DNA of 63,232 nt, counting the filler, from Rhabdomonas costata (lineage: Eukaryota), in the NCBI GenBank assembly GCA_019059605.1. It is 51 parts of 51 records of this genome, joined end to end, with 100 filler letters (N's around TTAATTAATTAA, not from the genome) between each part and the next. Parts side by side here need not be neighbours in the genome. Positions count along the whole stretch, not along the records: positions 1,244 to 2,386 come from JAHMHO010026507.1; 50 more parts are not named here. One strand, written 5' to 3'. A program made the translations under genes and the position numbers. Under the pieces are notes generated by a model. It saw nothing but the letters and a program-made list of their open reading frames with translations. It had not been told where the DNA came from and ran no database searches. This document shows, one piece after another, positions 1,244 to 5,708 of this stretch (position 1 is its first letter; every line of letters starts with the position of its first letter).

Positions 1244-1401
1244 GGGGTTTGGGTTACCTTGTGGGTACCGGTGGTCAGCACTCCACTCCATCCGTCTTCG
1301 TCTTCTTCTTCTTCTTCTATGGTATGGTTTCTAGGGTAGAGTGTAGCGTAGGGTATAGTAGTGGTTGTGGTTGTGGAGTGGAGTCCACTGTAGGGTGGAG
1401 T

Positions 1402-1515
1402 GAAGACGAACACACGCGCGAGGAACCCAAGGTCCACGAAGGCCAACATCACGACTTCCCAACATCCCACCGCTTCCGCGAACACCTGTAACCCCACCCA
1501 TACGAACTGAACCCC
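1402..1515 (-). pseudogene. Hydrophobic mitochondrial-type fragment, possibly nad5 N-terminus
   Basis: FVWVGLQVFAEAVGCWEVVMLAFVDLGFLARVFVF has the same G+T strand skew as cob and loosely resembles nad5 (FYEV...W.D.G.F). Weak. Confidence 0.25.
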
Positions 1516-1529
1516 GACACGCCGAACCC

Positions 1530-1990
1530 GGACATAGCCCTGAGGAAACACCACTAAGTACACCCGACCCACGCAACGCACCACCAGCACCAGGAGTAAC
1601 CGTAAACCCAAGGACCACCAAACAAGCACACAATCAAAACCGCCATGGCCGCAATACCCAAAGCCTTGTGAGGAATCGCCCGAATGACACTGTAGAAATA
1701 CCACTCAGGAACAATCAACGCAGGAGTGACAATAGGGTTAGCAGGCACATAGAAGTCAAAATGTCCGAAGCGATCTGGGTCCCAGAATGCACACATACCC
1801 AGAATCAACGCAGGAATACACACGATAGCAGCATCACGAGCTCGCTCGGCTGAAAGACAATAACAACTCGCAAGAACAAACCCCGTGGCCAATTGCACAC
1901 CCACCCACATACCTGCACAGAACCCCAATGACTAGCCTGAAGACAACAACGCCGACGTACTCTATGCCCTCTTCGAAACGACTTGCAACA
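1530..1990 (-). pseudogene. cob: Mitochondrial-type cytochrome b, internally deleted, with in-frame TAGs
   Basis: Helix A region (SLGFCAGMWVGVQLATGFVLA..Y) is fused to RD..helix E, then GHFDFYVPANPIVTPALIVPEWYF and YSVIRAIPHKALG, then AWVGC. PANP..TP..I.PEWYF is diagnostic of cytochrome b. Confidence 0.92.
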
Positions 1991-1999
1991 AGGCGGAAG

Positions 2000-2385
2000 A
2001 ACCCAGCACACAACGGTGACAGGAAACCGAGACCGACACCGACACCCACCGCAGAACCCCAGCGCCCAAAGGAATCCGACACCACGCATGTATATTCCCA
2101 GCACCACAAACGCAGAAGCCGAAACCCGAACCCATGAACCCCAACAATAAGGAAACTGCAAATCCACACCAGCACCAACGAAACACGAACGGACACAGAA
2201 GAACCAACAACCGTAGCGAAGGAAACCACCAAGAGCAAAACGAAAGCGTGATACCGAAGAACCACCGCTTGACACCTCCACAAGAACCACGATTCCACAC
2301 CAACCTCAGAACCTCAAAACCCCGAATGCCAGAACCCAGACACAAGACACAGAACCCGAAACCTACAAGCAAGACCCAAACCCCC
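2000..2385 (-). pseudogene. nad4: Mitochondrial-type NADH dehydrogenase subunit 4 fragments, frameshifted and internally deleted
   Basis: Motifs occur in nad4 order across two frames: VEVSSGGS (~VEAPTAGS, 2281), LGGFLRY (~LGxYGFLRF, ~2227), VDL (~IDLK, 2167), SFLIVGVHGF / VSASAFVVLGIYMR (~SILLMLSHGLVSSALFLCVGVLYDR, ~2157-2084), GLGF/PVT (~NMSLPGT, ~2031). Aligned by eye. Confidence 0.6.
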
Positions 2386-2908
2386 CNNNNNNNNNNNNNN
2401 NNNNNNNNNNNNNNNNNNNNNNNNNNNNNNTTAATTAATTAANNNNNNNNNNNNNNNNNNNNNNNNNNNNNNNNNNNNNNNNNNNNTGTTGTTGGGATAC
2501 GACGCAGAGATCCCGCTTCCTTGAAAACAGAAGCGGGATCTCTGCGTCGTATCCAAACTTTCACGGGCTGCACTCCACATCTTTTCCCTCTTGTTTTCAT
2601 CACAAAGAACGCACGCGTGCGAATGACTCAGTGTGTTCCTTCGTGCGTATGTGTGCGTAGAGCGTATTGCACGGTTACTCCTGCTGCTGTATTCGTTCGT
2701 TCCATCTGTACTAATATCGATTCTTGACCCAAGAAGTCGGGGATCACTCCCTGTGCTGCTCGGCCTTAGGGGCACAATTCCGCACGGGACTGCCTCGAAT
2801 GTGCTCTCACCGAAACCTGTTGCTGCTTCTCTCTTTCTCTTATCTCTCTCTTTACTACGTATTTACTCCCTCTTTCTCTGCCCCCTCCCCCTCCCCATCT
2901 AGTATTAC

Positions 2909-3024: not shown

Positions 3025-5708
3025 CTAAGAGAGACCCGGGAATGTCTGTGTGTGTGTGTGTGTGTGCACGAATCGCACTCATCAAGAGACACAACCCAAT
3101 ATTCAACCACACCAGCCCAGGTTTACGGGGTTTACCGGCTATCAGCTGTACACCCACCCACCTTGCATAACTGTGCATCTCCAGTTTTCAGCGTGCACAG
3201 CTAAATTATCGAAGTTGCCAAAATAGTTTGGAAACCCTGGCAGAATCTTCCGTGCATTTCGGCAAAACGATCTGGACAGCTGGGGCAATTCAGGAATTCC
3301 TGCCTGCTGAATTTCAAGCAATAGAAGGCTATAGGAATACAGCAGGCAACACCGTAAACATATGTAAACATATGTTTCTGTAATTGCGCACGTCCGTGCC
3401 TTTTTTTGTAACATCGCTGTGCTTCCTGACCCGCGGACACCAGAACTTCACCGTATCCCGAATGGGTGTGTGCAAACTTTTTTAAACAAACATTTTAAAC
3501 AGGGAATTGCGGCTTCTTGCATTTGGCCCCGCTTTTCGGATTTTAGGGCCTTGCTGCACGGCACCCTACGGCGCTGGATCTGGCGGGGCATCCTGGGGCG
3601 AAAGTAGCGAATTTAGGACCCAAAACCCCNNNNNNNNNNNNNNNNNNNNNNNNNNNNNNNNNNNNNNNNNNNNTTAATTAATTAANNNNNNNNNNNNNNN
3701 NNNNNNNNNNNNNNNNNNNNNNNNNNNNNGTTTGTGGGTGCCGCGTTTCATGGGCAAGCCTCTTCAGAGTGACCGAAACCAAAACAGTAAAACGTGTCCT
3801 CTCCAGACCCCCTTGGCTCGACGTGAGACGGAGGTATGGAGAGGACACGTTTTACTGTTTTGGTTTCGGTCACTCTGAAGAGGCTTGCCCATGAAACGCG
3901 GCACTCACAAAAAGTAATCAGCAATGGGAGGGGGGGGGGGATCGGGGCGCTGGGCTCCCTGTCACTTTGGACCGACGGTGCAGATTGACGGTCCGAAACT
4001 GGTTTGAAACCCAGGTGGTAATAAGCCCAGATGGAAGTAAAACCAGATGGTAAGATTGGCTCTATCTTCTCGTGTATTTCTTACTCTGGAAGGAACCGTG
4101 TACCGTGTTGCACAGCTTGCCAACGGGCGTGCTTGAATACTTTATGGGCCGGGAAGGGGGGGGGGTTCAGGAGTTGATGCTCTCCTTCCTGAAGGCAACC
4201 GGTGCTCACTCTGTTGATTCCCGTATCACGGACGCTGTTGTGAATAAGACATCGGGGTGTGCTCTCCCGAACCCTAGCAACTGATGGGCGTGGGTAGATG
4301 AGGGGGCAGGTGTATTGCTTTCATGAGATCCACGCACTCCTATGCTGTATCCATTCTCGGTGCTTCTGCGGCATCCCTTTCGCTCGTTTTGTTCTTTTAT
4401 GAAGAGCAGGTGCAATCAGGTATCCACCAGAATTATCATCGTTCATTGCAATGTTTTTTCACCACGAAGCACTCTTGCGGCTTGCAGGTTTTTTGTTCCT
4501 TCTGCGGCATGAGCGCATCATCCTAACGGATGGTTATGTTCATGTACCATGTGAGACGTTCGCTGTTGACACGCAATACAGCCAGAGCCTTTCCACATCA
4601 CCTCGGTGACAAGTGGTCATTCTCCACATCACATCGGTGATTTCTTGCAGGCGGCCGCTTTTTGTAGCGGAGATCAGTCGGCTGCTTCGCAGCTCTCTTG
4701 ACAGCGAAGACCCAGTGGTGGCTCTGGAGGGCGGCTGTCTAGTATGTTAAAGATGTTCGAAAACTTCACCCCACATCACACCTTCATTCTCCTGCCGTAC
4801 ACCACCGCACTGCACTGGCTCCATTCCACTCAGTTCTATTCGGCTTTGCTCCCTTGTGATGCTCCTCTCTGNNNNNNNNNNNNNNNNNNNNNNNNNNNNN
4901 NNNNNNNNNNNNNNNTTAATTAATTAANNNNNNNNNNNNNNNNNNNNNNNNNNNNNNNNNNNNNNNNNNNNGTTTTGGTGGAAGATGGGAGTTTTCCCTA
5001 CGCCGAAGCCATGCGTTGCGCCGCTGGGACTGGGTGAGTGTGGGGGTTGCCACGGGGACCTGCCACAATACTCTCCGAAGTCTCGGCGAGCTGCTTCTGG
5101 CGACTCTCAATGACGTTTGCTGAAGGGAAAAGTGTGTGTATGTGTGTGTGTGTGTGTTCGTGCACACACGTGCGTCCACATCACCTCAAATGTGAACGAG
5201 CATGATTCCGGCGAAAGATGTCCAGTGAAAACAGCGAACCCCTTGTTATTTTTGGTCCGTTTGTGTGGTTGCTTGCACGGCAGAAACCGGATTCATTCTA
5301 CATCTGTCTCACTTTGTCGCGAGTTGTCTTTTCGCAGCAACCCTGAAGGTGGACGGGGAGGAGGGATGAGCCCATATTACAAAGGTGAACCCCACAATGG
5401 AAATTACATATGGGCCGCGCCAACCCAACGTCTCCTGTTTGTACAGGCACGTGCAGCGAGCTTCAGGTATTCCGTCCCCCCCCCTTTTGCCCGTACCCCG
5501 TCCGTGATTGCATAACGCGTGGGTTGGGGAAGCTGAATCCGAGGTAATCAATAGGTGTACTTGAGTTGCTATCACCACACACACACACACACACACACAC
5601 CATATACACAGACAGTGACACAGTGACACAGTGACCCTCACTCACGGTCGGCACAGGCTTTTTCAGCCTTGGCGACAAACTCTACTACAACCCCACCCGC
5701 CCACACAG

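Follow-up and report, generated by a model that had tools for sequence, protein, structure and literature searches.

Two TAG codons in a mitochondrial reading frame of Rhabdomonas costata raise the question of whether UAG is read as tyrosine in the mitochondria of this lineage or whether the codons are simply stops in a decaying gene. The stretch analyzed here (hereafter the window) comprises 63,232 bases of the R. costata assembly GCA_019059605.1. It is not one piece of the genome, but 51 contigs of 1138-1144 bp each with N44-TTAATTAATTAA-N44 spacers between them. The TAGs lie in the second of these, here called the cob contig, which carries on its minus strand part of the gene for cytochrome b (cob) and was flagged by an initial annotation as a candidate case of UAG = Tyr. 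Our reading, to which we give a probability of roughly 0.8, is that the contig carries part of a euglenid-type mitochondrial cob, decayed and rearranged, within G+T-rich non-coding DNA, and that its TAGs are Tyr codons inherited from the working cob of a lineage in which UAG encodes Tyr.

The Two In-Frame TAG Codons

Both TAGs are present in the cob frame where the initial annotation had placed them, 30 nt apart on the minus strand (1964-1962 and 1934-1932) and in frame with an open reading frame (ORF) at 1554-1931. The ORF matches Pfam Cytochrom_B_C (PF00032) with an E-value of 3.2e-12 and a score of 47 bits, the cut-off being 20.7. When TAG is read as Tyr, the N-terminal domain Cytochrome_B (PF00033) matches residues 3-41, equivalent to profile positions 6-44 of 189, at a score below its cut-off (E = 0.0066, 16.7 bits vs. 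27.2). A protein search resulted in five full or partial cytochromes b. Four of them (P0001, P0003, P0004, and P0005) cover the N-terminus, where the homologues follow the consensus Y-S-T-T-x-L-L-T-P-x-Y-S-L-G-F-C, and all four have Tyr at both TAG sites. The best match in the PDB, chain 8iuf_QC (E = 1.1e-19), is the cytochrome b of Euglena gracilis and has Tyr at both sites as well.

Nucleotide sequences of relatives came from a scan of metagenome contigs with homologue alignment, which gave 23 loci (L001-L023); scans of genome contigs and of viral contigs gave no further ones. Among relatives the first two bases at both sites are invariably TA and the third is T, C, or G, with A also found in L002. 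In L007 the codon is TAG at either site. As to the residue at the second site, 12 of 13 euglenid-type relatives have Tyr, and L023, the one outgroup-like cob, has Trp. The two sites are as follows, with columns as in the alignment described below.

1962..1964, minus strand: TAG number 1; column 10, Tyr in 9/9 stop-free cobs; TAG in L003 and L007, TAA in L002
1932..1934, minus strand: TAG number 2; column 20, Tyr in 7/9 references, Phe in one and Trp in one; TAG in L002 and L007

TAG at Tyrosine Columns in Related cob Genes

The argument is carried by the relatives. Under the standard code no in-frame stops occur in the cob of L001 or of L009-L023. In-frame TAGs number six in L002, three in L006, nine in L007, and six in L008, and L003, L004, and L005 have the same two each; every one of these TAGs aligns to a Tyr of P0001. 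In addition, 14 distinct cobs and the window segments were aligned with MAFFT and the majority residue of each column was set by the nine stop-free cobs. All TAGs in the five distinct full-length cobs (L002, L003, L006, L007, and L008) fall in Tyr-majority columns (26/26), as do both of those in the window, 28/28 in all. The 28 TAGs occupy 11 columns, and Tyr-majority columns make up only 17 of 341. Each of the five cobs is full length, in a single frame, and keeps its histidines. Measured against E. gracilis cytochrome b, the TAGs stand at Tyr in 9/9 cases in L007 and 5/6 in L002, together 14/15. The proposal that UAG serves as an additional Tyr codon is supported both by the Tyr-majority columns and by the E. 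gracilis protein.

Where Tyr is strongly conserved, the codons in the five TAG-using loci are TAG (16 times), TAC (18 times), TAT (10 times), and TAA (once), and no others. Judged from these alignments, TAG is interchangeable with TAT and TAC at the Tyr columns of intact cobs in this clade. The share of TAG among Tyr codons tends to rise with the frequency of G at third codon positions, with L003 off the trend:

L007: third-position G 0.51; TAG 75% of Tyr codons
L008: third-position G 0.45; TAG 55% of Tyr codons
L002: third-position G 0.35; TAG 46% of Tyr codons
L006: third-position G 0.23; TAG 27% of Tyr codons
L003: third-position G 0.41; TAG 18% of Tyr codons (off trend)
L013, outside the clade: third-position G 0.39; TAG 0% of Tyr codons

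Three of the database proteins, P0002, P0007, and P0009, match ORFs on L003, L006, and L008, respectively, and each begins right after a TAG at a Tyr column, an illustration of how gene calling under the standard code truncates these genes.

The window copy belongs among these loci. In a maximum likelihood tree (339 columns, LG+G4) its closest neighbors are L006 and L008 (72% support), L007 joins these three at 100%, and all lie inside a clade with L003, L001, and L002 (99%). All members of this clade use TAG at Tyr columns except L001, the cob of which ends on TAG. The window branch is long (0.21, vs. 0.05-0.06 for L006 and L008). The clade is euglenid-like, since chains from E. gracilis are the best matches of both the cox1 of L005 (2e-171) and the cox2 of L004 (2e-49). 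Because the relatives' TAGs all stand at Tyr-majority columns and the window copy branches inside their clade, comparison of sequences makes it very likely that UAG = Tyr is real in this lineage.

A Broken Copy of cob

The window copy is not a working gene. Its parts, all on the minus strand of the cob contig, are listed here.

1839..1988: N-terminal segment of cob; helix A, preceded by the final ~8 codons of the N-terminal extension; corresponds to P0001 residues 9-52
1838..1839: deletion junction, in frame; ~171-172 codons gone (166 by P0001 numbering, residues 53-218)
1617..1838: cob C-terminal-half segment; equivalent to P0001 residue 219 to ~293, including PEWY; homology ends after LIVCLFG
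1695..1700: point where three codons have been lost; PEWY-(FLP/LPF)-FY becomes PEWYFY in gapped alignments
1554..1556: TAG closing the ORF, in sequence without cob homology

Homology to cob begins ~24 nt before TAG number 1 (~1988). In a TBLASTN search, P0001 residues 9-52 align to 1970-1839 (E = 9e-12) and residues 219-306 to 1838-1581, so that the two segments abut exactly. BLASTN identity of the N-terminal segment to L006 and L008 is 76-78% and extends to ~1987; TBLASTN also aligns residues 1-55 of L008. The C-terminal-half segment, which covers PF00032 profile positions 1-50 of 102 (E = 3.9e-12), matches L006 and L008 at 84% identity by TBLASTN and 81% by BLASTN. Between the two segments BLASTN leaves 516 nt of L006 (363-878) and 513 nt of L008 (460-972) without a counterpart in the window. 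This deleted stretch contains the four haem-ligand histidines, which the alignment shows to be kept in all relatives. At the junction the contig and L008 overlap by 3 nt.

The PEWY motif of the Qo site is kept, with the three residues after it gone. TBLASTN finds the C-terminal third in none of the frames, and the possibility that cob continues past LIVCLFG after a frameshift was rejected, as the proteins of L006, L007, and L008 match nothing beyond 1617. Weak extra TBLASTN matches with P0001 were set aside, that search having been run without composition correction. In total ~119-129 homologous codons are left of ~385-396, and about two thirds of the gene is gone. The copy has neither a full-length single frame (~350-400 residues) nor a complete four-histidine haem domain. 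It also departs from the shared residue at four of the 42 columns on which the other 13 sequences all agree; for most of those 13 the count is 0-1, and for L020 it is likewise four. As far as sequence can tell, it is an internally deleted, truncated fragment unable to form a working cytochrome b. Differences from L006 and L008 number 16-18, 7-8, and 42-43 at first, second, and third codon positions. This bias suggests that most of the divergence arose under purifying selection and that decay is comparatively recent.

Points Against the Reading

Several observations weigh against the reading given above. Because the window copy is broken, it offers no direct evidence on how UAG is decoded. With only two TAGs the window alone is not significant for UAG = Tyr: the probability that two independent nonsense hits both strike Tyr codons is 0.05-0.14, a weakness of the two sites that the initial annotation had itself suspected. 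This estimate counts single-base paths to TAG in the homologous codons of three relatives, of which 5-6 of 16-22 start at Tyr codons. The long open frame upstream is uninformative because the strand is only 13% A. Among the relatives, three of the 11 TAG columns are Tyr in only 5/8 or 5/9 of the references, and the sixth TAG of L002, at a column with Tyr in 5/8 references, stands opposite a Lys of the E. gracilis protein. The cox2 domain of L004 contains a single TAG, opposite which both of the COX2 structures listed have Leu, beside a Tyr. Finally, no tRNA-Tyr(CUA) or other tRNA was found on the cob contig, in the rest of the window, or in the clade loci L001-L008. To these points are added two other origins for the window piece, considered first below.

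Alternative Explanations

The best-surviving alternative concerns the window piece and not the code. The deletion, and perhaps the change of strand composition near 1400 described below, could be an artefact of amplification or assembly, the real cob being intact; UAG = Tyr would still hold. The contig ends invite this suspicion. Runs of at least 8 nt composed only of G and T stand at the start of 30 of the 51 contigs, and runs of at least 8 nt of A and C only at the end of 37, against a background in which 1.3% of internal 8-mers are G/T-only. Snap-back inverted repeats that resemble amplification artefacts were seen at the ends of two of the three neighboring contigs examined:

2491-2558: snap-back inverted repeat at a contig end; 29-nt arms, 97% identical
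3731-3911: snap-back inverted repeat at a contig end; 82-nt arms, 96% identical

We take the G/T-only starts, A/C-only ends, and snap-back repeats together to be marks of whole-genome amplification with degenerate primers. The terminal 10-15 nt of the window contigs, bounded by such primers, seem not to be genomic, and the ends of the cob contig look primer-derived too. Contig ends of this kind make chimeric joints possible in the window contigs. The 3-nt overlap with L008 at the deletion junction and the flip in skew near 1400 are in keeping with such a joint. A single template switch, however, would leave unexplained the loss of three codons after PEWY, the four broken columns of 42, and the loss of homology on both sides, and gene fragments dispersed through the mitochondrial DNA have been described for euglenids (PMC4700960). 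We consider an artefact unlikely.

The piece could also be a recent insertion of mitochondrial DNA into the nucleus (NUMT), which would be hard to tell from mitochondrial DNA by sequence and which we regard as rather unlikely. The minus strand of the cob contig consists of 34% T, 33% G, 20% C, and 13% A, and a strand skew of this strength is unique to the cob contig (1/51), the G+T content of the other 50 contigs being 0.42-0.58. The mitochondrial-type G+T skew continues outside the cob piece into its flanks; the other 50 contigs lack it.

If UAG were not Tyr, the TAGs would be plain nonsense mutations in a decaying pseudogene, mitochondrial or nuclear, and their Tyr positions a coincidence. 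The copy is clearly broken, TAY is one step from TAG, and the chance value given above is not small. This explanation nevertheless looks improbable. Intact cobs share TAG at the window sites (L007 at both, L002 and L003 at one each), the relatives' TAGs fall without exception in Tyr-majority columns, and the window copy lies inside the TAG-using clade. In addition, its 119 homologous codons include no TAA, no TGA, and no TAG outside Tyr positions, though codons other than Tyr are the starting point of 10-17 of the 16-22 one-step routes to TAG.

Alternatively, RNA editing could turn UAG into UAU or UAC in the mRNA and leave the code unchanged, as kinetoplastids and diplonemids edit their mitochondrial RNA heavily (PMC4700960). 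For R. costata, the genome paper reports that the authors, who had a transcriptome, saw no indication of RNA editing in mitochondrial genes (PMC8219788), and for E. gracilis the account in PMC4700960 gives none. A more general effect on the third base, with purine standing for pyrimidine through editing or relaxed decoding, is ruled out by the His, Asn, and Asp columns of the TAG-using loci, where only pyrimidine-ending codons occur. We know of no type of purine-to-pyrimidine substitution editing that is restricted to stop codons. Editing is thus highly improbable as the source of the pattern.

That UAG is sense but stands for another residue, for instance one of those it has in other variant codes (Leu, Gln, or Trp), has a negligible probability: the Leu-aligned TAG in cox2 of L004 and the Trp of L023 at the second window site are set against 28/28 cob TAGs in Tyr-majority columns, 14/15 of those in L002 and L007 at Tyr in E. 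gracilis, and strongly conserved Trp columns that use TGG only (15/15).

A Possible Route to UAG = Tyr

If UAG is Tyr, as we prefer, its decoding would fall to a tRNA-Tyr that can pair with this codon and that is encoded in the nucleus and imported. Import is suggested by the lack of tRNA genes in the window and in the clade loci, and the lack of mitochondrial tRNA genes in E. gracilis (as described in PMC4700960) suggests the same. A single RF1-type mitochondrial release factor would no longer recognize UAG; euglenozoan mitochondria seem to have retained no other type of release factor, as those of Diplonema have a single one of the RF1 type (PMC12699882). A mutational bias toward G and T could then convert TAY to TAG. 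The window fragment itself may have formed through recombination in mitochondrial DNA, like the scattered fragments of E. gracilis, and on balance it is probably a by-product of such recombination.

Of the 19 loci scanned for tRNA genes, 18 have none. The sole tRNA, a tRNA-Met (CAT) at L020:771-844, lies directly upstream of cob in an A+T-richer, euglenid-like locus.

Flanks of the cob Fragment

The remaining features of the cob contig lie outside the cob homology.

1244..2386: cob contig, 1143 bp, second of 51
1989..2386, minus strand: G+T-rich upstream flank; no recognizable gene; site of a claimed nad4-like frame
1244..1410: composition flip; the plus strand turns G+T-rich, and near 1400 the GC skew changes sign (about -0.4 to +0.4), as does the AT skew (about +0.5 to -0.5)

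The initial annotation had described a nad4-like frame in the upstream flank, with further in-frame stops. The TAG (2365-2363) and TGA (2308-2306) are indeed there, in a frame other than that of cob, but there is no signal of nad4 or any other family. A Pfam search at E ≤ 10 was blank both in this frame and in the cob frame of the flank, and the nad4-like frame was rejected. The third upstream frame has two DUF matches only, below cut-off. In the PDB (E ≤ 10) the nad4-like frame gave a single chance match at E = 1.2, though an E. gracilis complex I entry is included there. The upstream flank has no similarity to any relative locus, and no RNA family was found on the cob contig in Rfam at E ≤ 1.

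The flip in skew near 1400 may mark a chimeric joint or the meeting point of two oppositely oriented mitochondrial segments. A search for repeats inside the cob contig found nothing beyond short two-copy matches, and TBLASTN with the cox1, cox2, and cob of the relatives' loci matched the cob contig alone in the window. L007 and L008 have flanks that are just as skewed and show no recognizable gene, with no Pfam family in 15 plus-strand frames. In this they match both the skewed flanks of the cob contig and the gene-poor chromosomes described for euglenids (PMC8130358).

TGA, TAA, and Missing Stops in the Relatives

Eight in-frame TGAs, in five columns, were also seen in the intact cobs.

L002:182-184, 305-307, and 1121-1123: in-frame TGA; E. 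gracilis residues C, W, and C
L007:1010-1012, 1022-1024, and 1085-1087: in-frame TGA; E. gracilis residues C, F, and E
L006:357-359 and L008:455-457: in-frame TGA

Three TGAs stand at invariant Cys columns (two in L002 and one in L007) and none at strongly conserved Trp columns. Another falls where E. gracilis has Trp and the closest relative has Cys, and one lies at a Phe/Cys column where the window codon is TGG; three share one variable column. UGA may not be Trp in these lineages, perhaps Cys, or changes from Cys to Trp may recur.

The lineage of L003, L004, and L005 has no TGA in the conserved parts of cox1, cob, and cox2. These three genes lie on the same strand of one 63% G+C contig, and the first TGA past the end of homology is 29 codons away in cox1 and ~38 codons away in cox2.

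L005:1-1350: cox1; best match E. gracilis
L004:2632-3240: cox2; best match E. gracilis

An in-frame TAA occurs in L002 (137-139) at the first Tyr column, which is invariant in the nine stop-free cobs. It is inside the coding region, since the ten codons preceding it match L001 at 9/10 positions. Past the end of cob homology, no in-frame TAA occurs for 126-624 codons, or to the contig end, in L003/L004, L006, L007, and L008:

L003:1289-2756: TAA-free stretch after cob
L004:1962-3833: TAA-free stretch after cob
L006:1386-1765: TAA-free stretch after cob
L007:2000-2543: TAA-free stretch after cob
L008:1499-2755: TAA-free stretch after cob

The TAG-using loci have no TAG, TGA, or TAA near the expected end of cob. 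The first TAG past cob homology comes after 30-33 codons in L006 and L008, and there is none within 50 codons in L003 and L007. In L002 the 36 codons between the end of cob and the contig end contain no stop. It is conceivable, though distinctly unlikely, that all three stop codons are sense in the mitochondria of some members of the clade, with translation ending by other means, perhaps where the mRNA stops or where polyadenylation completes a UAA. The leads from TGA, TAA, and missing stops rest on small counts (eight TGA and one TAA).

Comparison With Known Systems

The initial annotation knew of no euglenozoan with UAG = Tyr, and here it was wrong. Soukal et al. (2021) proposed UAG = Tyr and UGA = Trp for the mitochondria of R. 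costata itself, having found many UAGs where homologues have tyrosine in its cox1, cox2, cob, and nad4 contigs (Sci Rep 11:13070, PMC8219788). UAG = Tyr in euglenid mitochondria is therefore already published and is not new; in the literature on euglenid mitochondrial codes we found no other report of it. The data described there resemble ours in being a fragmented draft after whole-genome amplification with many cob-like contigs (15 rows of Table S7), but the curated genes of that study differ from the window piece, which is a broken copy (PMC8219788).

Fragments of this kind are known from E. gracilis, the mitochondrial DNA of which contains scattered, short, probably non-functional gene fragments attributed to recombination (Dobakova et al., 2015, PMC4700960; Spencer and Gray, 2011, as cited therein). 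The window piece resembles them, in that pieces of protein genes lie there in non-coding DNA on short linear molecules (PMC4700960). For the window piece, an amplification chimera is an alternative to an E. gracilis-like fragment. The code differs, as that of E. gracilis is given as table 4 without UAG = Tyr (PMC8219788). The structure used for comparison, 8IUF, is the E. gracilis respiratory supercomplex (PMC10884005). Chain QC has 368 residues, and the window keeps the equivalents of ~8-52 and 226-292 only.

Outside the euglenids, UAG = Tyr occurs in mitochondria of some Labyrinthulea, and UGA = Trp with UAG = Tyr in the sponge Clathrina clathrus (cited in PMC8219788). Both have the same mitochondrial stop-to-Tyr reassignment as proposed here. 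Labyrinthulea and the sponge are unrelated lineages with mitochondrial tRNA genes of their own.

Among mitochondrial codes the combination of UAG = Tyr and UGA = Trp is rare. The window brings no new principle to it, as the code was proposed in 2021 and the copy is a dead fragment. Where tRNAs are imported, as appears to be the case in euglenozoan mitochondria, a change from stop to sense would need both an altered pool of imported tRNA and an altered single RF1-type factor. Annotation under table 4 would cut such mitochondrial genes at each TAG, as seen in P0002, P0007, and P0009. Among the metagenome loci the reassignment spans five or more distinct lineages of one clade, in which TAG accounts for up to 75% of Tyr codons, and is thus broader than the single published species.

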